From Escherichia coli (GTDB taxonomy: Bacteria; Pseudomonadota; Gammaproteobacteria; Enterobacterales; Enterobacteriaceae), in assembly GCF_013122565.1 (NCBI RefSeq), contig NZ_CP053258.1: a stretch of 64,000 nt of DNA; one strand, 5' to 3'. Shown here piece by piece: positions 17,985 through 29,395 of the stretch. The notes beneath the pieces are model-generated. The model did no database searches, was not told where the DNA came from, and saw nothing but the letters and a program-made list of their open reading frames with translations. Numbering within the stretch: position 1 is the stretch's first letter; every line of letters starts with the position of its first letter. The translations under genes were made by a program, and so were the position numbers.

Positions 17985-18016
17985 TAAAAAAGCCGCCAGG
18001 TTTGACCCCGGCGGCT
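17985..18016 (-). terminator. intrinsic terminator of ahpCF (minus strand)
   Basis: Plus strand aaaaaagccgccagg-tttgacc-ccggcggc; on the minus strand a GC hairpin followed by a U-tract, just after the ahpF stop. Confidence 0.7.
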
Positions 18017-18045
18017 AAACAATTGCAGGTGAATCTTACTTCTTC

Positions 18046-19611
18046 TTATGCAGTTTTGGTGCGAATCAGGTAGTCAAAAGCACTCAGAGAGGCTTTGGCA
18101 CCTTCGCCAGTAGCGATGATGATCTGCTTGTACGGAACCGTCGTACAGTCACCCGCTGCGAACACGCCTTTGACGTTGGTTTCACATTTCGCATCAATGA
18201 TAATCTCACCCATGCGGTTACGCTCGACTGCGCCTTCCAGCCAGTTAGTGTTCGGCAGCAGACCAATCTGGACGAAAATACCGGCCAGTTCGATGTTGTG
18301 AATATCGCCGCTGACACGATCACGATATTCCAGACCAACGACTTTGCTGCCGTCGCCTTTCACTTCCGTAGTTTGCGCATTCAGAATGATGTCGACGTTT
18401 TTCAGGCTGCGCAGTTTGTCCTGCAGAACCTGGTCGGCTTTCATTTCTGGCGCAAATTCCAGCAGAGTAACGTGTTCAACGATACCCGCCAGGTCGATTG
18501 CCGCTTCCACGCCGGAGTTACCGCCGCCGATAACCGCTACGCGTTTGCCTTTAAACAGCGGGCCGTCGCAGTGCGGGCAGTAGGTCACGCCCTTGGTGCG
18601 ATACTGATCTTCGCCAGGAACGTTCATGTTGCGCCATTTTGCACCAGTCGCCACGATAATGCTGCGTGCTTTCAGTACCGCGCCAGAAGCTGTTTCAATC
18701 TGATGCAGGCCACCTTCAACCGCTGCCGGGATCAGTTTGCTGGCGCTCTGGCTGTCGATCACATCAACGTCGTATTCATCAACGTGAACTTTCAGCGCAC
18801 CTGCCAGTTTCTGGCCTTCGGTCTTCGGTACAGAAATGTAGTTTTCGATATCAACGGTATCGAGGATCTGACCACCAAAACGTTCGCCCATCAAACCAGT
18901 ACGGATACCTTTACGTGCGGAGTAAATTGCTGCCGCTGCACCCGCCGGGCCGGAACCGACGATTAATACGTCATAAGCATCACGCTTGTTCAGCTCTTCT
19001 GCCGCACGTTTTTCCGCGCCAGTATCAATTTTGGCGACGATTTCAGTCAACGTCATGCGGCCCTGACCAAACTCTTTCCCGTTTACGAACACTGCCGGAA
19101 CGCCCATCACGTTGCGATCGGTGATTTCGTTCTGGAAGGTGCCGCCGTCAATTGCAGTGTGCTTGATGCGCGGATTCAGTACGCTCATCAGGTTCAGCGC
19201 CTGCACCACGTCCGGGCAATTGTGGCAAGAGAGCGAGTAATAGGTTTCGAATTCAAAATCACCGTCAATATGGCGAATCTGCTCCAGCAGAGACTGCGCT
19301 TCTTTCGACGGATGACCACCGGTCCACAGCAGCGCCAGTACCAGCGAGGTGAACTCGTGGCCCAGCGGGGAGCCTGCAAAACGTGGCCCCTGGTTGGAAC
19401 CTGGGTTGGTGATCAGGAAAGACGGCTTACGCACCGGCAAGCTGTTATCTTCTTTAAAGGTGACTTTGTCTGACAGTTCTGCGATTTCAGCCAACAGTTC
19501 CTTGATTTCTGCCGATTTAGCGCTGTCATCCAGCGTGGCAATTAACTCAACAGGCTTGGTCAATTTCTCAAGGTAAGCCTTGAGTTGAGTTTTCATATTT
19601 GTGTCGAGCAT
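18046..19611 (-). CDS. ahpF: alkyl hydroperoxide reductase subunit F (521 aa)
   Basis: Internal Met ([17 protein letters not shown]) of track ORF 18046..19641; CPHCDGP redox centre and FAD/NAD GxGxxG motifs. Confidence 0.93.
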
Positions 19612-19781
19612 GTTTATCTCCTGGGCTTTAAACATCATCATGCAAGCGGCCTCTGCGGCTACCTGGATGCAGCTTGCATCATGGTGCGGGGAAGAAAATC
19701 GGGTGCCGCAGCACCCGATTAATTAGGTGAATTTCCGAAGTATTTCGCGCCGGAGTTGGTAGCGCGAAAGACGAAGGAAAT

Positions 19782-20345
19782 TTAGATTTTACCAACCAGG
19801 TCCAGAGACGGAGCCAGAGTTGCTTCACCTTCTTTCCATTTAGCCGGGCAAACTTCACCTGGGTGAGAAGCAACGTACTGGGCTGCTTTGATTTTGCGCA
19901 GCAGGTCAGACGCGTCACGGCCAATGCCTTCAGCGGTAACTTCGATAGCCTGGATGATACCCTGCGGGTCAACTACGAAGGTCGCACGGTCAGCCAGACC
20001 TTCTTCTTCACGCATGTTTTCGAAGTTACGGGTCAGGGCGCCAGTCGGGTCGCCGATCATCGCATATTTGATTTTAGCGATGGTTTCAGAGCTGCTGTGC
20101 CATGCTTTGTGGGTGAAGTGAGTATCAGTAGATACTGCGTATACGTCTACGCCCAGTTTCTGCAGTTCTTCGTAGTGGTCAGCAACGTCACCCAGTTCGG
20201 TCGGGCATACGAAAGTAAAGTCAGCCGGGTAGAAGAAGAAGACGCTCCAGCGGCCTTCGGTATCTTTTTCGGTGATTTCGATGAATTCGCCGTTTTTGAA
20301 TGCCTGGTTTTTAAAAGGTTTGATTTTGGTGTTAATCAAGGACAT
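19782..20345 (-). CDS. ahpC: alkyl hydroperoxide reductase subunit C, peroxiredoxin (187 aa)
   Basis: Track ORF 187 aa with FTFVCPTEL peroxidatic cysteine motif. Confidence 0.95.
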
Positions 20346-20349
20346 CTAT

Positions 20350-20470
20350 ACTTCCTCCGTGTTTTCGATGGGATGTAAGGTAACGAATTTTTTTCGATTC
20401 CGCTAATGTGTTTCCATTATCGAATCGATAAGTTTTACCTTACAACCTTCGTAAGACAACTTTGTGAACT
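20350..20470. promoter_or_regulatory. ahpC promoter region (OxyR-regulated by knowledge of the family; exact site not resolved)
   Basis: Location inferred from gene context; A/T-rich region with repeated cgat/atcg elements; no confident motif match by eye. Confidence 0.3.
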
Positions 20471-20718
20471 TTGCACCGCCGGCGGCGATAAAAAGTAAAA
20501 TGGGCCCCCTTTCCAGGTGACCGTGTAATCTGAACTACCCTTTGGTATCTTCAGCGCCTGTTCAGCAGGCTGCGTTGTTGCCCTTACAAATGCAACAACG
20601 ATAAGGATTACAACACCCTCATAAACAAAGGGCAATCACCTGATCTAAGCTCTTACCTATGACAGTGATAGGTTATGCCTTTTGCCCCATTTTTGCACTG
20701 ACTGAAAAGGATAAATAA

Positions 20719-21465
20719 ATGCTAAAAAAGTCACTTTTAATGACAATGCTACCTGCCATTGCCTTCGCAGAGGAACTTCCTGCTCCAGTAAAAGCGATTG
20801 AAAAACAGGGCATTACAATCATCAAAACGTTCGATGCCCCCGGAGGAATGAAAGGTTATCTCGGAAAGTATCAGGATATGGGCGTCACCATCTACCTGAC
20901 TCCAGATGGTAAGCACGCTATCTCTGGTTACATGTACAACGAGAAAGGTGAAAACCTGAGTAACACACTTATCGAAAAAGAAATTTACGCACCAGCCGGA
21001 CGCGAAATGTGGCAACGGATGGAACAATCCCACTGGCTCCTCGACGGTAAAAAAGACGCGCCGGTCATTGTCTACGTCTTCGCCGATCCGTTCTGCCCAT
21101 ATTGTAAACAGTTCTGGCAGCAGGCGCGCCCGTGGGTAGATTCTGGCAAAGTGCAGTTGAGAACATTGTTGGTTGGGGTTATCAAACCAGAAAGTCCGGC
21201 GACAGCCGCGGCAATTCTTGCCTCCAAAGATCCCGCAAAAACCTGGCAAGAATATGAAGCCTCTGGTGGCAAGCTTAAGCTAAACGTGCCTGCAAACGTA
21301 AGTACAGAGCAAATGAAAGTGTTAAGCGATAACGAGCAACTCATGGACGATCTGGGGGCAAATGTCACACCCGCTATCTATTACATGAGTAAGGAAAATA
21401 CGTTGCAACAAGCCGTGGGGTTGCCCGATCAGAAAACGCTTAATATCATTATGGGAAATAAATAA
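20719..21465 (+). CDS. dsbG: periplasmic disulfide isomerase DsbG (248 aa)
   Basis: Track ORF 248 aa with signal peptide and CPYC thioredoxin-fold active site. Confidence 0.92.
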
Positions 21466-21477
21466 AAGATAATTCAT

Positions 21478-21513
21478 GGATGGTTGAAATATACCCCTGC
21501 TTTTCAACCATCC
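21478..21513 (+). terminator. hairpin after dsbG (terminator candidate, weak U-tract)
   Basis: ggatggttgaaa-tatacccctgc-tttcaaccatcc 12-bp inverted repeat 13 nt after the dsbG stop. Confidence 0.45.
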
Positions 21514-21672
21514 TTAAAACGCATGAATTGCTCGCTCTGTGCCAGATGGCTGTGCTATTTTAGAAAAACTTAATCCTGAGTTAAGCAAAAAAACATAATC
21601 AATAAAAATATATACGCAAAAACATTGATTAAGTGAATACTTCATGGAAGAAAAATATAACCGGAGTACTGT

Positions 21673-22575
21673 ATGGCCAATCTCTACGACCTGAAAAAGT
21701 TCGACTTAAATCTTCTTGTCATCTTTGAGTGCATTTATAAACACTTAAGCATAAGCAAGGCTGCTGAGTCATTATATATCACTCCATCAGCAGTGAGTCA
21801 GTCGTTACAACGCTTACGTGCGCAATTTAATGACCCTTTATTCATTCGCTCAGGAAAAGGTATCACGCCAACTACGACAGGGTTAAATTTACACAATCAC
21901 CTTGAGAAAAACCTCAGAGGTCTTGAGCAAACAATCAATCTTGTTAATAAATCGGAAGTAAAGAAAAATTTTATTATCTACGGTCCTCAGCTCATCTCCT
22001 GTTCTCATAACCGCATGCTGATCCGCTGCCTACGGCAAGATACCTCGGTCGAGATTGAGTGCCATGACACACTTATTTCAGCCGAGAATGCTGAAGAACT
22101 GTTGGTTCATCGCAAAGCCGATCTGGTGATCACTCAAATGCCAGTGATCAGTCGTTCCGTCATTTGTATGCCATTGCATACGATTCGTAATACCCTAATT
22201 TGTAGTAATAAACATCCCCGGATTACAGATACCAGTACTTACGAACAAATTATGGAAGAAGAGTTCACCCAATTAATTTCCAAATCATCGGGGCTTGATG
22301 ACATTCAAATGGAAATAGACGAGAGGTTTATAAATCGTAAAATTGCCTTTCGTGGCTCCTCTTTATTGGCGATCATAAATAGCATTGCGATTACAGATTT
22401 GCTAGGAATAGTTCCCTTTGAACTTTATGAATCCCACCAAGAATCTCTTAATTTAAAGGAAATAAAACTAGAGCACCCCCTACCCTTGGTTAAGCTTTAC
22501 ATTTGTTACAACAAGACTTCTCTAAACAACCTGGCATTCTCACGATTCATTGACAGATTGAATGATAATTCTTGA
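21673..22575 (+). CDS. ybdO: LysR-family transcriptional regulator (300 aa)
   Basis: Track ORF 300 aa with N-terminal LysR HTH (LSISKAAESLYITPSAVSQSLQRLR); strongly AT-rich coding sequence. Confidence 0.88.
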   Translation: MANLYDLKKFDLNLLVIFECIYKHLSISKAAESLYITPSAVSQSLQRLRAQFNDPLFIRSGKGITPTTTGLNLHNHLEKNLRGLEQTINLVNKSEVKKNFIIYGPQLISCSHNRMLIRCLRQDTSVEIECHDTLISAENAEELLVHRKADLVITQMPVISRSVICMPLHTIRNTLICSNKHPRITDTSTYEQIMEEEFTQLISKSSGLDDIQMEIDERFINRKIAFRGSSLLAIINSIAITDLLGIVPFELYESHQESLNLKEIKLEHPLPLVKLYICYNKTSLNNLAFSRFIDRLNDNS

Positions 22576-22720
22576 TATATAGATTCAGAGAGAGGCTACA
22601 TCCTTTCATTTCTATTCATTTCATCAATAAAAAATAAAATACTCTACCTTACAGGACTTACTTTATAATTAACGACCTTATCTCACTGATCACCCTGTAA
22701 CGTTCAGAGAGCGTATTTAG

Positions 22721-23941
22721 ATGTCTATTTATAAAATTCCTCTTCCACTCAATATTCTGGAAGCTGCACGAGAGCGTATTACCTGGACACTCAATACCCT
22801 ACCCCGCGTTTGTGTCTCATTTTCTGGCGGCAAAGACTCTGGTTTAATGCTGCATCTGACAGCCGACCTTGCCCGACAAATGGGCAAAAAAATCTGCGTT
22901 TTGTTTATCGACTGGGAAGCGCAGTTCTCATGCACTATCAACTATGTTCAGTCACTACGCGAGTTTTACGCCGATGTCATCGAAGAGTTTTACTGGGTTG
23001 CGCTCCCGCTTACGACGCAAAATTCCCTTTCACAATACCAACCCGAATGGCAGTGCTGGGAACCTGATGTCGAATGGGTGCGTCAGCCCCCGCAAGATGC
23101 GATAACCGATCCTGACTTTTTCTCCTTTTACCAGCCAGGCATGACCTTCGAACAATTTGTACGTGAGTTTGCCGAATGGTTTTCACAAAAACGTCCGGCG
23201 GCGATGATGATCGGCATCCGTGCGGATGAGTCCTACAATCGTTTTGTCGCCATCGCCAGTTTAAATAAACAACGTTTTGCCGACGATAAACCCTGGACTA
23301 CGGCCGCGCCAGGCGGTCATAGCTGGTACATATACCCCATCTACGACTGGAAAGTCGCCGATATCTGGACCTGGTATGCTAAAAACCAAAGCCTCTGTAA
23401 CCCACTGTATAATCTGATGTATCAGGCAGGTGTCCCTCTGCGTCATATGCGAATTTGCGAACCTTTTGGCCCGGAGCAACGGCAAGGATTATGGCTCTAT
23501 CACGTCATCGAACCGGATCGCTGGGCGGCCATGTGCGCACGAGTCAGCGGAGTAAAAAGTGGCGGCATTTACGCCGGACATGACAACCATTTTTATGGTC
23601 ATCGTAAAATCCTCAAGCCGGAACATTTAGACTGGCAGGAGTATGCATTATTGCTACTCAGCAGCATGCCGGTGAAAACAGCTGAACATTACCGTAATAA
23701 AATCGCCATTTATTTGCACTGGTATCAGAAAAAAGGCATCGAGGTTCCACAAACCCAACAAGGGGACATTGGCGCGAAAGATATCCCCTCCTGGCGGCGA
23801 ATATGCAAAGTTTTACTCAACAACGATTACTGGTGCCGGGCATTATCATTTAGCCCCACAAAAGCGAAGAATTATCAGCGTTATAACGAACGGATAAAAG
23901 GAAAACGTCAGGAATGGGGGATACTATGCAACAACGATTAA
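22721..23941 (+). CDS. ybdN: PAPS-reductase-like PP-loop ATP pyrophosphatase domain protein (IbrA-like, 406 aa)
   Basis: Track ORF 406 aa; PP-loop motif SFSGGKDS at residues 33-40 (about nt 22817-22840). Confidence 0.88.
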   Translation: MSIYKIPLPLNILEAARERITWTLNTLPRVCVSFSGGKDSGLMLHLTADLARQMGKKICVLFIDWEAQFSCTINYVQSLREFYADVIEEFYWVALPLTTQNSLSQYQPEWQCWEPDVEWVRQPPQDAITDPDFFSFYQPGMTFEQFVREFAEWFSQKRPAAMMIGIRADESYNRFVAIASLNKQRFADDKPWTTAAPGGHSWYIYPIYDWKVADIWTWYAKNQSLCNPLYNLMYQAGVPLRHMRICEPFGPEQRQGLWLYHVIEPDRWAAMCARVSGVKSGGIYAGHDNHFYGHRKILKPEHLDWQEYALLLLSSMPVKTAEHYRNKIAIYLHWYQKKGIEVPQTQQGDIGAKDIPSWRRICKVLLNNDYWCRALSFSPTKAKNYQRYNERIKGKRQEWGILCNND

Positions 23942-24543
23942 CGCAGGATTTAACGCAATTTCTCGCCAGCTTGCCGGAAGACGATCGCATCAAAGCGATT
24001 AATGAAATCCGCATGGCGATCCATCAGGTAAGTCCTTTTCGGGAAGAGCCGGTGGATTGTGTTTTGTGGGTCAAAAATGATCAGCTTGTGCCAAATGATT
24101 ACAACCCAAACAACGTGGCACCGCCCGAGAAAAAATTGCTGAAAAAATCCATTGAAACTGATGGTTTTACCCAACCCATTGTGGTGACCAACACGACAGC
24201 CAATTCACTTGAAATCGTTGATGGTTTTCACCGCCATGAAATCGGTAAAGGATCATCATCATTAAAACTACGCTTAAAAGGTTATTTACCGGTGACCTGC
24301 CTGGAGGGGACGCGTAATCAGCGCATCGCCGCGACTATTCGTCATAATCGCGCTCGTGGACGCCATCAAATCACCGCCATGTCGGAAATCGTCCGTGAAC
24401 TTAGCCTGTTGGGATGGGACGATAATAAAATTGGCAAAGAGCTGGGAATGGACAGCGACGAAGTGCTGCGCCTGAAGCAAATTAACGGCCTGCAAGAGTT
24501 GTTTGCCGACCGTCAATATTCCCGCGCCTGGACTGTCAAATAA
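23914..24543 (+). CDS. ybdM: ParB/Srx-like nuclease domain protein (IbrB-like, 209 aa)
   Basis: Track ORF 209 aa; DGFHRHE motif at residues 103-109 (about nt 24220-24240); 28-nt overlap with ybdN. Confidence 0.88.
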   Translation: MGDTMQQRLTQDLTQFLASLPEDDRIKAINEIRMAIHQVSPFREEPVDCVLWVKNDQLVPNDYNPNNVAPPEKKLLKKSIETDGFTQPIVVTNTTANSLEIVDGFHRHEIGKGSSSLKLRLKGYLPVTCLEGTRNQRIAATIRHNRARGRHQITAMSEIVRELSLLGWDDNKIGKELGMDSDEVLRLKQINGLQELFADRQYSRAWTVK

Positions 24544-25704
24544 CTACAGCTGGCGCAGGCGTTCAGCTGCTGCCAGCAACGTCGATTCCTTCTTGGCAAA
24601 ACAGAGACGAATCAGTTTATGTGGGAAGGGATCGGCGCAAAACACCGATAGCGGAATCGCCGCTACGCCGTGCTCCTGCGTCAGCCACTGGCAAAACTCA
24701 ACATCATCCAGGGTAGATACGGCGCTGTAATCCACCAGCAAAAAGTATGTGCCTTCGCACGGTAAAATCTCCAGCCGACTTTCATTTAAGGCGTTAACCA
24801 GAATATCGCGCTTCTGGCGATAAAAGTCCGGTAACGCAAGATAATGCTCAGGTTCTGCACGTAGCATATCGGCAAGCGCCAGCTGTGCCGGGGTATTTAC
24901 CGAAAAGGTCAGATACTGATGTACCTTGCGAATTTCGGCACTGATGGGCGCTGGCGCAACGCAATAACCCACTTTCCAGCCGGTCATATGATAGGTCTTG
25001 CCAAACGATGACACCGCCACCGCCCGCTCACGCAACTGCGGATGCGCCAGCACACTGGCATGGCCCTGTTGTGAAAAGTTGATGTGCTCGTAGACTTCAT
25101 CGCTAATGACAAAAATCTCGTGCCCGGCGATCGCCTGCCACAAAGCGGCGAAATCAGCCTGCTGCCAGACAGTTGCACTGGGGTTATGCGGAGTGTTGAG
25201 GATCACCAGTCGGGTGCGCTCGCTTAACAATGCGGCAAATTCCTGCCAGTCAACGCGAAAATGCGGTGGTTGCAGTGCCATACGCTTCACTATTCCCCCA
25301 GAAAGCGCGATGGCGGGGGCGTAACTGTCATAGCTGGGATCAAAACAAATCACTTCATCGCCATTGCGCACCAATGCGGTAATCGCCGCGTATAACGCCT
25401 CCGTCGCCCCTGCCGTTACGGTGATATCGCTGTCGGCATCCGGTTGATAGCCATACAGACGTTCCGTTTTCTGAGCAATCGCCTCGCGCAAGGCCTGCAC
25501 GCCGCTCATGGGCGCGTATTGGTTTGCCCCCTGGGCAACGTGGTACGCCAGTCGCTCTTGTAAATAGCGCGGACCATCAAAATCAGGAAAGCCTTGCGAA
25601 AGGTTAATCGCCTGGTGTTGCTGCGCCAGCGCGCTCATCTGGGTGAAAATAGTGGTGCCAAGTTGTGGAAGTTTGCTTTGTGGAATCAGAGGGTTATTTG
25701 TCAT
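24544..25704 (-). CDS. ybdL: PLP-dependent methionine aminotransferase (386 aa)
   Basis: Track ORF 386 aa, class I/II aminotransferase pattern (SFGKTY lysine region); stop abuts the ybdM stop. Confidence 0.9.
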   Translation of the reverse strand: MTNNPLIPQSKLPQLGTTIFTQMSALAQQHQAINLSQGFPDFDGPRYLQERLAYHVAQGANQYAPMSGVQALREAIAQKTERLYGYQPDADSDITVTAGATEALYAAITALVRNGDEVICFDPSYDSYAPAIALSGGIVKRMALQPPHFRVDWQEFAALLSERTRLVILNTPHNPSATVWQQADFAALWQAIAGHEIFVISDEVYEHINFSQQGHASVLAHPQLRERAVAVSSFGKTYHMTGWKVGYCVAPAPISAEIRKVHQYLTFSVNTPAQLALADMLRAEPEHYLALPDFYRQKRDILVNALNESRLEILPCEGTYFLLVDYSAVSTLDDVEFCQWLTQEHGVAAIPLSVFCADPFPHKLIRLCFAKKESTLLAAAERLRQL

Positions 25705-25812
25705 TTTTATTGTACCTGACGAAGTTGCGTGTTGAAGGCACTATAACACGATGCTAGTATTTGGCAATCAAGACGTTTAGATGTCTAAATAAAACAATAA
25801 GGACAACACAAC

Positions 25813-26901
25813 ATGCCTCACAATCCTATCCGCGTGGTCGTCGGCCCGGCTAACTACTTTTCACATCCAGGAAGTTTCAATCACCTGCACGATTTTTTCA
25901 CTGATGAACAGCTTTCTCGCGCGGTGTGGATCTACGGCGAACGCGCCATTGCTGCGGCGCAAACCAAACTTCCGCCAGCGTTTGAACTGCCAGGGGCAAA
26001 GCATATTTTGTTTCGCGGTCATTGCAGCGAAAGCGATGTACAACAACTGGCGGCTGAGTCCGGTGACGATCGCAGCGTGGTGATTGGCATCGGCGGCGGC
26101 GCACTGCTCGACACCGCGAAAGCCCTCGCCCGCCGTCTCGGTCTGCCGTTTGTTGCCGTTCCGACGATCGCCGCCACCTGCGCCGCCTGGACACCGCTCT
26201 CCGTCTGGTATAACGATGCCGGACAGGCGCTGCATTATGAGATTTTCGACGACGCCAATTTTATGGTGCTGGTGGAGCCAGAGATTATCCTCAATGCGCC
26301 GCAACGATATCTGCTGGCGGGGATCGGTGACACGCTGGCGAAATGGTATGAAGCGGTGGTGCTGGCCCCGCAACCAGAAACGTTGCCGCTAACCGTGCGG
26401 CTAGGGATCAATAATGCGCTGGCTATTCGCGACGTCTTGTTAAACAGTAGCGAACAGGCGCTTGCCGATCAGCAAAATCACCAGTTAACGCAATCATTTT
26501 GCGATGTGGTGGATGCCATTATTGCTGGTGGTGGGATGGTTGGTGGTCTGGGCGATCGTTTTACGCGTGTGGCGGCAGCTCATGCCGTGCATAACGGTCT
26601 GACCGTGCTGCCGCAAACCGAGAAGTTTCTCCACGGCACCAAAGTCGCCTACGGAATTCTGGTGCAAAGCGCCTTGCTGGGTCAGGATGATGTGCTGGCG
26701 CAATTAACTGGAGCGTATCAGCGTTTTCATCTGCCGACTACGCTGGCGGAGCTGGAAGTGGATATCAATAATCAGGCGGAGATCGACAAAGTGATTGCCC
26801 ACACCTTGCGCCCGGTGGAATCCATTCATTACCTGCCGGTCACGCTGACACCGGATACGTTGCGTGCAGCGTTCGAAAAAGTGGAATCGTTTAAAGCCTG
26901 A
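25813..26901 (+). CDS. ybdH: iron-containing alcohol dehydrogenase family hydroxycarboxylate dehydrogenase (362 aa)
   Basis: Track ORF 362 aa, glycerol-dehydrogenase-like fold (GGGALLDTAKA motif). Confidence 0.9.
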   Translation: MPHNPIRVVVGPANYFSHPGSFNHLHDFFTDEQLSRAVWIYGERAIAAAQTKLPPAFELPGAKHILFRGHCSESDVQQLAAESGDDRSVVIGIGGGALLDTAKALARRLGLPFVAVPTIAATCAAWTPLSVWYNDAGQALHYEIFDDANFMVLVEPEIILNAPQRYLLAGIGDTLAKWYEAVVLAPQPETLPLTVRLGINNALAIRDVLLNSSEQALADQQNHQLTQSFCDVVDAIIAGGGMVGGLGDRFTRVAAAHAVHNGLTVLPQTEKFLHGTKVAYGILVQSALLGQDDVLAQLTGAYQRFHLPTTLAELEVDINNQAEIDKVIAHTLRPVESIHYLPVTLTPDTLRAAFEKVESFKA

Positions 26902-26910
26902 CGTACACAT

Positions 26911-27108
26911 TTAGCAGCAGCGCGCGCCGCCTTTTCCACCGTAGCGCGCGTCCTGCCGCTCACGGAAAAACTCCTCGTAGGTCATCGGCGTCTGATCGGG
27001 ATGGTTAACCCGCATATGTTCGACATAGTTGTCGTAATCAGGCATACCAATCATCAGTTTCGCCGCCTGACCTAAATATTTTCCGGCTTTTGCCAGTGAA
27101 TCAAACAT
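26911..27108 (-). CDS. ybdD: small DUF466 protein encoded downstream of cstA (65 aa)
   Basis: Track ORF 65 aa ([48 protein letters not shown]...). Confidence 0.85.
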
Positions 27109-27141
27109 TAATACCTCCGGTAATCAGGTTGCCAGGAGAGT

Positions 27142-27176
27142 GCCGGATGCGGCGTGAACGCCTTATCCGGCCTACA
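27142..27176. repeat. REP (repetitive extragenic palindrome) between ybdD and cstA
   Basis: gccggatgcggcgtgaacgccttatccggcctaca, canonical REP-like sequence; the same 35-mer recurs at 49068-49102. Confidence 0.6.
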
Positions 27177-27184
27177 AATGCTAT

Positions 27185-27295
27185 CAACGTGCTCGGTCAG
27201 TCCCCTCGCCCCACCGGGGAGAGGGTTAGGGTGAGGGGAAACCCTCGGCGCCATGCCAACATTCGCCAACATTCCCCCTCACTCTGACTTTAGTG
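27185..27295. repeat. GC-rich imperfect palindromic element (GGGAGAGGG / CCCTCACCC cores) downstream of cstA
   Basis: cccctcgccccaccggggagagggttagggtgaggggaaaccctc...; shares about 20-nt cores with the element in the fepB leader (coordinates approximate to about 15 bp). Confidence 0.4.
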
Positions 27296-29395
27296 CGCGC
27301 CTTTTGCCTGCGCCACGATCTCCTCGACATTTTCCGGCATCGGCTCATACGGCGTTTCTTTCGCCGTTGGCTTCGGATCTTTCAATGCCGCAAGTGCCGT
27401 CTTAATCGAGAACAGTGCCAGAACCACCACGACCACCATAAAGAAGATGGTTAACCCGGCATCCAGACGGTTGTTGAACACCAGTTGCGCCAGCTGTGAC
27501 TCAGTATACTGCGACGGAATATTGCCGCTGTCGATCATTGCCTGGAACTTGTTAGCAATCGCCAGGAAGCCGACTTTCGCATCCGGGCTAAACGCTTTCT
27601 GCCAGCCTGCGGTCAGGGTACAAATCAGCAGCCAGGCCGTTGGTACCAGCGCCACCCAGGCGTAACGTTGACGTTTCATTTTGAACAGCACTACGGCACA
27701 GAGCATCAGCGCCATCCCTGCCAGCATCTGGTTGGCAATACCAAACAGCGGCCACAGAGTGTTAATACCGCCCAGCGGATCGACCACGCCCTGATGGAGG
27801 AAGTAGCCCCACGCCAGTACGCACAGCGCCGTTGCCAGCAGGTTAGCAGGCAGTGAATCGGTCCGTTTCAGACCCGGAGACACCACGCCCAGCAGATCCT
27901 GCAACATAAAGCGCGCAGCACGCGTACCTGCATCCACCGCCGTCAGAATAAACAGTGCTTCAAACAAAATGGCGAAGTGATACCAGAACGCCACATCCAT
28001 CATGCCGCCCAGCGCGCCGTGCAGAATGTAGGCCATCCCCACCGCCAGCGTCGGCGCACCGCCCGCACGGGAAATGATCGACTGTTCACCCACTTCGCTG
28101 GCAATCTGGTTTAGCGTATCCGGGGTAATCGCAAAGCCCCAGCTACTCACCACCTGCGCGGCAGAAGCGACCACATCCGCCGTCCCTGCCGGAGCCAGCA
28201 CCGCCATCGGGCTGTTCATGGCGAAGTACACACCCGGATCGATGATACAGGCGGAAACCAGCGCCATAATCGCTACGAAGGATTCCATCAACATCCCGCC
28301 GTAGCCGATAAAGCACGCCTGCCCTTCGTTCGCCAGCATCTTCGGCGTGGTGCCGGAAGAGATCAGCGCATGGAAGCCAGACACCGCGCCACAGGCGATG
28401 GTGATAAACAGGAACGGGAACAGGTTACCGGTCCATACCGGGCCAGTGCCATCGACAAATTTGGTCAGCGCAGGCATGGTCAGCGTCGGGCGCATAATCA
28501 AAATGCCTACCGCCAGACCGACGATAGTCCCGATTTTCAGGAAGGTAGAAAGGTAGTCACGCGGAGCCAGCAGCAACCACACCGGCAGCACCGCCGCCAC
28601 AAAACCGTAACCCACCAGCATCCAGGTCAGCTGCACGCCGGTAAAGTCAAAGTACGGTGCCCAGGTCGGGCTTTCTGCCACCCAGCCGCCAGAGATAATG
28701 GCGAAAATCAGGAATACCAGACCGATGACCGACACTTCACCAATACGCCCCGGACGCAGATAGCGCAGGTAGATCCCCATAAACAGCGCCAGCGGAATGG
28801 TGAACGCAACGGTATACGTTCCCCACGGGCTATGAGTCAGGGCTTTCACCACGATCATCGCCAGTACTGCAAGGATAATGACCATGATCATAAAGCAGGC
28901 CACCAGCGCTATCACCCCGGCGGTTGGCCCCATCTCTTCTTTGACCAGCTCACCCAGCGATCGACCGTCACGGCGCGTAGAAACAAACAGCACCATGAAA
29001 TCCTGCACCGCACCGGCGAGAACCACCCCGGCGAGCAGCCAGATCATCCCTGGCAGGTAACCCATTTGCGCCGCCAGTACCGGCCCAACCAACGGACCTG
29101 CTCCGGCAATGGCCGCAAAATGGTGACCGAACAGCACTTTCTTGTCCGTCGGCACATAGTCCAGCCCGTCGTTATGCCGCACCGCTGGCGTCATACGCGT
29201 CGGGTCAACCGCCAGCACATTTTTGGCGATATACAGACCATAAAAACGGTAAGCGATCAGATAGATACAGACCGACGCCACCACAATCCACAGTGCGTTG
29301 ATCTGTTCCCCACGATTTAAAGCAATGTATCCCAGAGCAAATGCTCCCATTACAGAGAGCACTGTCCAGACGAGGTATTTCCCTGATTTGTTCAT
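27290..29395 (-). CDS. cstA: carbon starvation protein A, CstA-family peptide/pyruvate transporter (701 aa)
   Basis: Track ORF 701 aa, large polytopic membrane protein. Confidence 0.93.
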   Translation of the reverse strand: MNKSGKYLVWTVLSVMGAFALGYIALNRGEQINALWIVVASVCIYLIAYRFYGLYIAKNVLAVDPTRMTPAVRHNDGLDYVPTDKKVLFGHHFAAIAGAGPLVGPVLAAQMGYLPGMIWLLAGVVLAGAVQDFMVLFVSTRRDGRSLGELVKEEMGPTAGVIALVACFMIMVIILAVLAMIVVKALTHSPWGTYTVAFTIPLALFMGIYLRYLRPGRIGEVSVIGLVFLIFAIISGGWVAESPTWAPYFDFTGVQLTWMLVGYGFVAAVLPVWLLLAPRDYLSTFLKIGTIVGLAVGILIMRPTLTMPALTKFVDGTGPVWTGNLFPFLFITIACGAVSGFHALISSGTTPKMLANEGQACFIGYGGMLMESFVAIMALVSACIIDPGVYFAMNSPMAVLAPAGTADVVASAAQVVSSWGFAITPDTLNQIASEVGEQSIISRAGGAPTLAVGMAYILHGALGGMMDVAFWYHFAILFEALFILTAVDAGTRAARFMLQDLLGVVSPGLKRTDSLPANLLATALCVLAWGYFLHQGVVDPLGGINTLWPLFGIANQMLAGMALMLCAVVLFKMKRQRYAWVALVPTAWLLICTLTAGWQKAFSPDAKVGFLAIANKFQAMIDSGNIPSQYTESQLAQLVFNNRLDAGLTIFFMVVVVVLALFSIKTALAALKDPKPTAKETPYEPMPENVEEIVAQAKGAH

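Follow-up and report, generated by a model that had tools for sequence, protein, structure and literature searches.

The analysed window is a 64,000-nt stretch of the Escherichia coli chromosome (contig NZ_CP053258.1) across which the genes are ordered ahpF-ahpC-dsbG-ybdO(citR)-ybdN-ybdM-ybdL-hcxA-ybdD-cstA-ent. The subject of this analysis is the overlapping pair ybdN-ybdM, whose open reading frames (ORFs), domains and motifs are collected in Table 1. The pair is a known and annotated entity. It belongs to the IbrA/IbrB family, as a protein with PAPS_reduct and DUF3440 domains adjoins an IbrB-type ParB-like protein, and the operon repressed by CitR has already been published. RefSeq names YbdM 'IbrB-like' and UniProt lists homologues as 'Immunoglobulin-binding regulator', in keeping with the link to the IbrA/IbrB regulators drawn in a first-pass annotation of this DNA. 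The genes ybdN and ybdM both still count among those of E. coli K-12 without a known function, and YbdM was termed 'completely uncharacterized' in 2022 (PMC8764527). The findings added here are the obligate partnership of the two families, the vertical, syntenic inheritance of the chromosomal copy under purifying selection, and the presence of a paralogous pair in 39% of E. coli genomes.

Table 1 Features of the ybdO-ybdN-ybdM region, in window coordinates.
Feature	Coordinates	Strand	Description
ybdO/citR	21673..22575	+	300-residue ORF; LysR-type repressor of ybdNM; AT-rich, hypervariable in E. coli
ybdO-ybdN intergenic region	22576..22720	+	145 bp, AT-rich; presumed ybdNM promoter/operator region
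ybdN	22721..23941	+	406 residues; IbrA-family PP-loop ATP pyrophosphatase
YbdN PAPS-reductase-like α/β domain	22808..23422	+	residues 30-234
YbdN PP-loop motif SFSGGKDS	22817..22840	+	residues 33-40, counted on the ORF translation
YbdN DUF3440, family-specific helical C-terminal domain	23429..23938	+	residues 237-406
ybdN 3' end / ybdM 5' end overlap	23914..23941	+	28 nt (16 nt if ybdM starts at 23926)
ybdM	23914..24543	+	209 residues; IbrB-family small ParB-like protein
YbdM DGFHRHE motif	24220..24240	+	residues 103-109; at the position of ParB box II GERRxRA
YbdM TIRHNRARGRH motif	24334..24366	+	residues 141-151; second invariant basic motif of the family
YbdM helix-turn-helix DNA-binding region	24421..24501	+	about residues 170-196

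YbdN consists of a PAPS-reductase-like domain followed by a family-specific extension. The Pfam PAPS_reduct model covers the first domain with an E value of 8e-14, and DUF3440 (PF11922) matches residues 237–344 (E 1.6e-22) and 352–383. The fold of the first domain is Rossmann-like α/β, of the adenine nucleotide α-hydrolase type; in the AlphaFold2 model (predicted local distance difference test score, pLDDT, 88.5) the DUF3440 domain is all-helical. The nearest structural relatives are FAD synthase and CysD, at 18–21% sequence identity. A sequence search of the PDB with YbdN returned nothing informative (FAD synthase, E 0.003), and the DUF3440 family profile matched no solved structure (best E 0.21). 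Overall, YbdN falls within the PAPS-reductase/FAD-synthase/CysD clade of PP-loop ATP pyrophosphatases and has an additional helical domain.

The PP-loop that the first-pass annotation had placed at residues 33–40 was recovered there on the translation. In an alignment of 39 diverse YbdN homologues its residues G37, K38 and S40 are invariant, and conservation reaches at least 90% at S35, G36 and D39. Conservation extends to D64/E66, to a GIRxDESxxR motif within the α/β domain and to many tryptophans, the domain also holding a Trp-rich insertion (W110, W113, W119). The same alignment contains no cysteine column that is invariant or at least 90% conserved. Near the CysH-equivalent position lies the cysteine of the RICEPFG segment, in whose place several of the homologues carry D, N, H, A or G.

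These features bear on the RefSeq product name of YbdN, 'phosphoadenosine phosphosulfate (PAPS) reductase', which is a domain-level label rather than a function. Taken literally, the name, shared by many virome papers, would have YbdN reduce PAPS to sulphite in sulphur assimilation; of all the explanations weighed here we consider this one the least credible. YbdN scores far below the cut-offs of the curated CysH/PAPS reductase models, with 33 bits against 154 for NF002537, 33 against 254 for TIGR02057 and 24 against 165 for TIGR00434, and the curated CysD model is likewise missed by a wide margin. The catalytic cysteine of CysH sits in a C-terminal ECGLH motif, and it has no counterpart among the conserved columns of the YbdN family. 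In addition, the intact PP-loop suggests the use of ATP, and neither the additional DUF3440 domain nor the obligate ParB-like partner agrees with a reductase of this kind.

YbdM is composed of an N-terminal helical hairpin, a ParB/sulfiredoxin (Srx) domain and a C-terminal helix-turn-helix (HTH), and the chain ends about 13 residues past the HTH; the AlphaFold2 model has a pLDDT of 83. On the single sequence the match to Pfam ParB_N is weak (E 1e-4). The YbdM family profile matches Helicobacter pylori ParB with an E value of 1.3e-6, and the alignment places the NxYNPN segment of YbdM on box I (NPYQPR) and DGFHR on box II (GERR), where a phenylalanine replaces the ParB glutamate. A scan of the NCBIfam curated models at E ≤0.01 yielded only Noc (E 8e-5) and parB_part (E 0.01), and a PDB sequence search with YbdM gave nothing informative (Noc, E 0.004). 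On the strength of the ParB_N match, the family-profile match to H. pylori ParB and the alignment of both boxes, YbdM is predicted to be a genuine ParB-type DNA-binding protein, so that profile comparison supports the folds proposed earlier for both partners. The pocket of YbdM carries a motif of the xGxHR type, as in Srx, serine kinase and DndB-like members, and not the GERR of the CTPase ParBs.

Conservation of YbdM was assessed over 28 sequences, from enterobacteria and from phages of Streptococcus, Lactobacillus and Pseudoalteromonas. The DGFHRHE motif noted earlier was found at its expected place, and its D103, G104, H106 and R107 are invariant, as are T141, R143, H144, N145, A147, R148, G149 and H151 of the second motif. 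The family is unusually conserved, with a mean column identity of 55% from enterobacteria to Firmicute phages. Full or near invariance of the PP-loop and DGxHR residues, in 39 and 28 diverse homologues respectively, shows that the two motifs are not chance occurrences.

The N-terminal hairpin of YbdM, about the first 45 residues, is missing from the homologues of the Streptococcus, Lactobacillus and Pseudoalteromonas phages (L001:6296-6805, L003:6259-6777 and L002:6702-7235). It is present in the enterobacterial proteins and in most of those from viral contigs, and its absence from the phage homologues named identifies it as an accessory element. The AlphaFold Database holds a 505-residue Shigella flexneri entry, A0A6N3R9C3, described as 'ParB-like nuclease domain protein', which is 94% identical to YbdN over 334 columns. 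It looks like a YbdN-YbdM fusion that might stem from a frameshift within the overlap or from an artefact of gene calling.

The architecture of the two proteins also bears on whether the enzyme might be directed at RNA. YbdN would then modify tRNA, rRNA or phage RNA, as do TilS, ThiI, TtuA and NcsA, and YbdM would be the subunit, binding RNA or DNA, that confers specificity or regulation. We regard such a role as improbable. The closest clade is that of PAPS reductase, FAD synthase and CysD rather than that of the tRNA enzymes, Pfam identifies no THUMP, PUA or other RNA-binding domain in YbdN, and the HTH of the partner is of the ParB, DNA-binding type. An invariant cysteine for thiolation is missing, and the operon is silent during normal growth.

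The pairing of the two genes holds well beyond the window. Both proteins match full-length PHROGs families, phrog_2302 for YbdN (E 6e-76) and phrog_2159 for YbdM (E 3e-69). Searches of GenBank phage records by tblastn gave 224 matches for YbdN and 225 for YbdM at adjacent coordinates, with identical counts in the ten genera listed (Flavobacterium 90, Mycobacterium 60, Streptococcus 21, Arthrobacter 12, Bacillus 8, and others). Relatives are encoded on more than 589 IMG/VR contigs, the best 80 of which were analysed as viral loci. A YbdM homologue lies within five genes of the YbdN homologue in 72 of these 80 loci, in both gene orders; where the ybdN-type gene comes first, the two overlap by 4–34 nt in 20 of 24 cases, with starts called mechanically. 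No other gene family occurs near the pair in more than 11 of the 80 loci. The matching phage counts, the linkage in the viral loci and the scarcity of any third family establish the YbdN and YbdM families as a self-contained, obligate two-component unit. Three distant homologues were also looked up and gave matches on short contigs only.

In phages the module is found among replication and recombination genes, or beside methyltransferase and terminase genes, and its carriers include virulent Streptococcus phages. The pair is located between the lysin and cro genes in a virulent phage of Streptococcus thermophilus and closes the early region of a Pseudoalteromonas phage; a Lactobacillus phage is a further annotated carrier. 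An Arthrobacter phage has the order ParB, PAPS-reductase, ParB, methyltransferase, HTH, large terminase. Such contexts could suggest an accessory of phage packaging or partition, that is, a ParB-like partition factor, a small-terminase-like protein or a genome-recognition factor, of which the E. coli copy would be a relic. This is very improbable. The module is distant from the terminase in the Streptococcus, Lactobacillus and Flavobacterium phages, the obligate PP-loop enzyme is left unexplained, and strong purifying selection, described below, implies that the E. coli genes are not relics.

Several additional components were observed around the viral pair. A protein of about 135 residues (phrog_26647, E 9e-10) is encoded directly upstream of the YbdN homologue in 11 of the 80 viral loci (L075-L110, e.g. 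L078:3521-3928), and the same protein is fused to the YbdN N-terminus in P0123. A GNAT acetyltransferase gene is located beside or between the pair in eight viral loci and in L156. The 135-residue protein and the GNAT may each be an optional third component. Certain viral YbdM homologues reach 374–412 residues and carry a conserved Cys- and Trp-containing C-terminal extension of about 150 residues with motifs that include WECxxAGFY and NRIxWLGQA (L135, L138 and L145-L151, e.g. L149:4826-5965); the extension has no match in Pfam or PHROG. Domain fusions were considered as clues to function and rejected, as the long homologues are mostly over-extended ORFs in high-GC DNA, frameshifts or chimeras. 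P0184, P0237, P0245, L088 and L141 were discarded on these grounds, and P0123 is the sole credible fusion.

The chromosomal copy has a different history. The ybdNM locus is present in 5422 of 5426 complete E. coli genomes. A single-protein contig scan, which returned only close Enterobacteriaceae relatives, provided 65 loci from species genomes, and in all 65 ybdN-ybdM lies between ahpC/dsbG and ybdL; the taxa include Citrobacter, Salmonella arizonae and diarizonae, Enterobacter, Lelliottia, Kosakonia, Phytobacter and Pseudocitrobacter. Pairwise dN/dS ratios (omega) are 0.04–0.05 for ybdN and 0.06–0.12 for ybdM, comparable to those of ybdL and dsbG. The shared synteny and the low dN/dS show the chromosomal ybdNM to be old, vertically inherited and functionally constrained, neither cargo of a defence island nor a decaying relic.

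This result does not support the description of the pair as a 'defence-like' module in the first-pass annotation. The corresponding explanation is a host anti-phage system, in which a chromosomal modification or abortive mechanism protects the cell. There is fold-level kinship with known defence enzymes: among the models of PADLOC-DB v2, YbdN matches DndC (E 2e-5) over only 72 of 481 profile positions and BrxP (E 2e-4) in a marginal and partial manner, and the only match of YbdM, also marginal and partial, is to MTase_II, a ParB-fused methyltransferase. A PAPS reductase and ParBc proteins feature in NAP-associated clusters put forward as defence candidates in a 2026 preprint, and the ybdO/ybdM region is unusually divergent among E. 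coli strains. Against these points, none of the PADLOC-DB v2 matches assigns ybdNM to a defence system above noise level, the position and omega values just given are those of a core locus, no linked nuclease or effector gene was found in the window or in the 80 viral loci, and hundreds of phages themselves encode the pair. Host defence is accordingly rated a small chance.

The divergence within E. coli is uneven. The segment comprising ybdO, the intergenic region and the 5' part of ybdN (21500–23000) is 74–90% identical in nucleotide sequence to other E. coli, and ybdM (24000–24500) about 90%, compared with 97–98% in the flanks. At the ybdNM locus, just nine of the 5422 E. coli genomes with a match reach an identity to the window of 99% or more. 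The excess is mainly synonymous, with a dS of 0.8–1.6 and an omega of 0.07–0.18 for ybdO, which points to deep allelic lineages or imported alleles and not to positive selection for the ybdO/ybdN 5' divergence.

The two ORFs overlap by 28 nt according to their coordinates, as stated in the first-pass annotation. A second start candidate for ybdM is an in-frame ATG at 23926, four codons in, with GGGGGA 4 nt upstream, whereas the annotated ATG at 23914 has GGA 11 nt upstream and hence a poorer Shine-Dalgarno spacing. The overlap could therefore be 16 nt, and the ORFs overlap with either start. An overlap of about 25 nt is kept across the 65 Enterobacteriaceae loci. Co-expression, which had been suggested from the overlap, agrees with published data, as deletion of citR raises ybdN by 5.5 log2 and ybdM by 2.5 log2 (PMC9068703). 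The ybdM stop on the plus strand abuts the stop of the convergent ybdL on the minus strand at 24543/24544 with zero intergenic bases and no terminator-like hairpin between the two, so any transcript reading through would run antisense into the gene next to it.

The regulator upstream was identified as CitR, its product scoring 456 bits against a cut-off of 400 in the NCBIfam equivalog model. The GC content is 0.36–0.41 over 21500–22999, compared with 0.44–0.55 upstream (18000–21499) and 0.50–0.58 downstream (24500–27499). The earlier observation of a LysR gene in AT-rich DNA is thereby corroborated, and the profile confines the AT-rich stretch to ybdO, the intergenic region and no more than roughly the initial 280 nt of ybdN; the remainder of ybdN and ybdM have a GC content of 0.47–0.51. 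A ChIP-exo peak shows CitR (YbdO) bound upstream of citR-ybdNM, and the region is reported to be H-NS regulated (PMC9068703); from these data we infer a regulatory role for the ybdO-ybdN intergenic region. A consensus scan of this region gave no strong sigma-70 match and one weak terminator-like hairpin (22590–22607), and promoter and terminator consensus counts are at the level of shuffled sequence. No Rfam family was found in 20000–27500. YbdO is far more divergent than the pair it precedes, at 49–60% amino acid identity, and is missing from about 15 of the 65 Enterobacteriaceae loci that keep ybdNM. A knockout of ybdM turned up in a peptide-resistance screen (PMC12147183).

A second IbrAB-like pair is present in 2094 of 5426 complete E. 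coli genomes (39%), with amino acid identities of 57% to the YbdN and 58% to the YbdM of the window. It occurs at up to four places per genome on islands, prophages or plasmids, 71 of the places being on plasmids, for example beside a PerC-family regulator and aerobactin genes or near yaiO/yaiP (L072:6001-7847, L152, L153); in one strain the enzyme gene is frameshifted. The island or prophage pair shares with ybdNM the two families, their order and the overlap of the ORFs, but ybdNM is a core chromosomal copy with its own LysR repressor upstream. Sandt and colleagues reportedly found in 2002 that both ibr genes are needed to activate prophage eib expression. In the same work, the K-12 ybdNM reportedly did not substitute for ibrAB.

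The name of the family derives from this activation of prophage eib genes, and the main rival to the interpretation given below is an expression switch without covalent DNA modification. YbdM/IbrB would be a nucleotide-gated DNA binder like VirB or KorB that counter-silences or represses H-NS-bound, AT-rich phage or prophage genes, while YbdN would make or remove the nucleotide ligand, or adenylylate YbdM or another protein. The location of the genes within a silenced, AT-rich region under the control of CitR and H-NS fits such a switch, as does a core chromosomal copy under purifying selection, which is expected for a regulator. FAD synthase and CysD, the nearest structural relatives of YbdN, make adenylylated small molecules. 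Furthermore, YbdM protein is 29-fold higher in response to a CTX-M-15 resistance plasmid (PMC8764527). However, the module is also present in virulent phages that have no prophage genes to activate, such as Streptococcus phage 94, a Moineauvirus, and an ever-present dedicated enzyme of 400 residues is a costly accessory for a regulator. The catalytic glutamate of ParB box II is missing, and a search of the locus and its surroundings (21400–24700) revealed neither a parS-like sequence nor another notable palindrome. We consider the switch somewhat unlikely on balance.

The pair ybdN-ybdM is an enterobacterial, vertically inherited copy of the IbrA/IbrB module, which otherwise resides mainly on phages, prophages and islands. 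The interpretation that we favor, with a probability of roughly 40%, is that the module is of phage origin and carries out a ParB-guided, ATP-dependent and sulphur-independent modification of nucleic acid, namely DNA. YbdM would bind DNA through its HTH and, together with its nucleotide pocket, would recruit or activate YbdN. YbdN would then spend ATP to adenylylate an oxygen on nucleic acid, most likely DNA and possibly a phosphate-type oxyanion; the idea comes from its closest structural relatives, FAD synthase and CysD, which move AMP to phosphate or sulphate oxyanions. The adenylylated position could be the final mark or an activated intermediate of a further substitution, and the chemistry would proceed without sulphur. 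In phages the mark might protect or re-programme the phage genome. In cells it might alter the reading of the DNA, which could account for the reported IbrAB-dependent activation of prophage eib; the E. coli operon would normally be off.

A DNA modification is consistent with the invariant, catalytic-looking residues of both proteins (PP-loop, D64/E66, GIRxDESxxR, DGxHR and TxRHNxARGxH), and DndC, SspD and BrxP are precedents of PAPS-reductase-clade enzymes that modify DNA. The obligate pairing, the phage contexts among replication, recombination, methyltransferase and terminase genes, the functional constraint on the chromosomal copy and its repression by CitR also count in its favor. A more elaborate version holds that the IbrA/IbrB-type pair is an uncharacterised adenylylation-type, sulphur-independent DNA modification system in which the ParB-like protein loads the PP-loop enzyme onto DNA, that it is widespread in phages, which it serves as a genome-marking or counter-defence device, and that nearly all E. 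coli, along with many further Enterobacteriaceae, keep a silent conserved copy. We hold this version to be unlikely as a whole.

Several observations count against a DNA modification. The literature searched contains no modified nucleotide, substrate or activity for any member of the family, nor was a mechanistic study of ybdN/ybdM, IbrA/IbrB, DUF3440 or a PAPS reductase-ParB pair in phages found there. No enzyme donating sulphur or another group is consistently linked to the module in the 80 viral loci. The chromosomal copy is core and vertically inherited, which restriction-evasion or epigenetic-marking modules usually are not, and a regulatory role fits this copy at least equally well. Gene activation is reportedly the only phenotype described for the family, by Sandt and colleagues. 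Lastly, with phenylalanine in place of the box II glutamate, a ParB-like clamp cycle driven by CTP is not to be assumed for YbdM.

The obligate pairing, the absence of the cysteines that PAPS reduction or phosphorothioation would require, the ParB and HTH partner and the purifying selection together narrow the search for a function to ATP-dependent adenylylation on or near DNA, and in E. coli, a model organism, the operon is easily approached genetically by deleting citR or expressing the two genes. Phage and virome studies routinely mislabel the pair as an auxiliary 'PAPS reductase' gene of sulphur metabolism. If the pair does produce a new DNA mark or form a ParB-based gene switch, it would be relevant to phage-host conflict, xenogeneic silencing and virome annotation.

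Farther along the window, the gap between ybdD and cstA contains a repetitive extragenic palindromic (REP)-type element, GCCGGATGCGGCGTGAACGCCTTATCCGGCCTAC, followed by a G-rich palindromic repeat, CCCCTCGCCCCACCGGGGAGAGGGTTAGGGTGAGGGG (27141–27175 and 27195–27245). The two produce a spurious 65-residue ORF in the mechanical ORF list.

One comparison among known systems is with DNA phosphorothioation. DndC/DndB, and likewise SspD and BrxP, resemble ybdNM in combining a PAPS-reductase-type PP-loop enzyme with a ParB/Srx protein that has a DGxHR-type motif, and the Dnd enzymes act on DNA. One preprint asserts that evasion of Dnd is aided by a PAPS reductase of phage origin. The parallel drawn in the first-pass annotation stands at the level of the superfamilies, but it fails at the level of the families. 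YbdN scores 22.2 bits in the DndC model TIGR03183, which has a cut-off of 290.4, and YbdM has no match among the DndB or DGQHR curated models of NCBIfam. For DndC a cysteine dyad or Fe-S ligands are described (PMC12839542, PMC10853773), whereas YbdN has neither an invariant cysteine nor a dyad, and DUF3440 takes the place of the DndC C-terminal region. As noted earlier for this locus, DndA/IscS, DndD and DndE partners are absent, both from the window and from the 80 viral loci. The missed models, the lack of conserved cysteines and the lack of a DndA/D/E-like neighbor exclude, at the level of sequence comparison, that YbdNM are Dnd, Ssp or BREX-4 phosphorothioation enzymes or that YbdN is a true PAPS reductase.

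The CTP-dependent ParB-family proteins KorB, VirB and ParB/Spo0J/Noc have GERR in box II, whereas YbdM has DGFHR and has lost the catalytic glutamate; YbdM also lacks their C-terminal dimerization domain and has an N-terminal helical hairpin instead, and no ParA is encoded at the ybdNM locus. Relative to FAD synthase (the PAPS domain of eukaryotic Fad1/FADS) and CysD, YbdN has the Trp-rich insertion and DUF3440 added. Phages and islands are also known to carry small ParB-family proteins that a DNA-modifying enzyme requires and to which it is coupled genetically. DpdB is the ParB-like partner of DpdA in the 7-deazaguanine system (PMC12839542), and a phage thymine dioxygenase requires its ParB on double-stranded DNA only (PMC13229309). 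ParB-methyltransferase fusions also exist (phrog_498 and PADLOC MTase_II). The enzyme classes differ, DpdA being a transglycosylase and the dioxygenase an Fe/2OG enzyme, whereas YbdN is a PP-loop ATPase, and the dioxygenase-associated ParB is without an obvious DNA-binding domain, whereas YbdM has an HTH.

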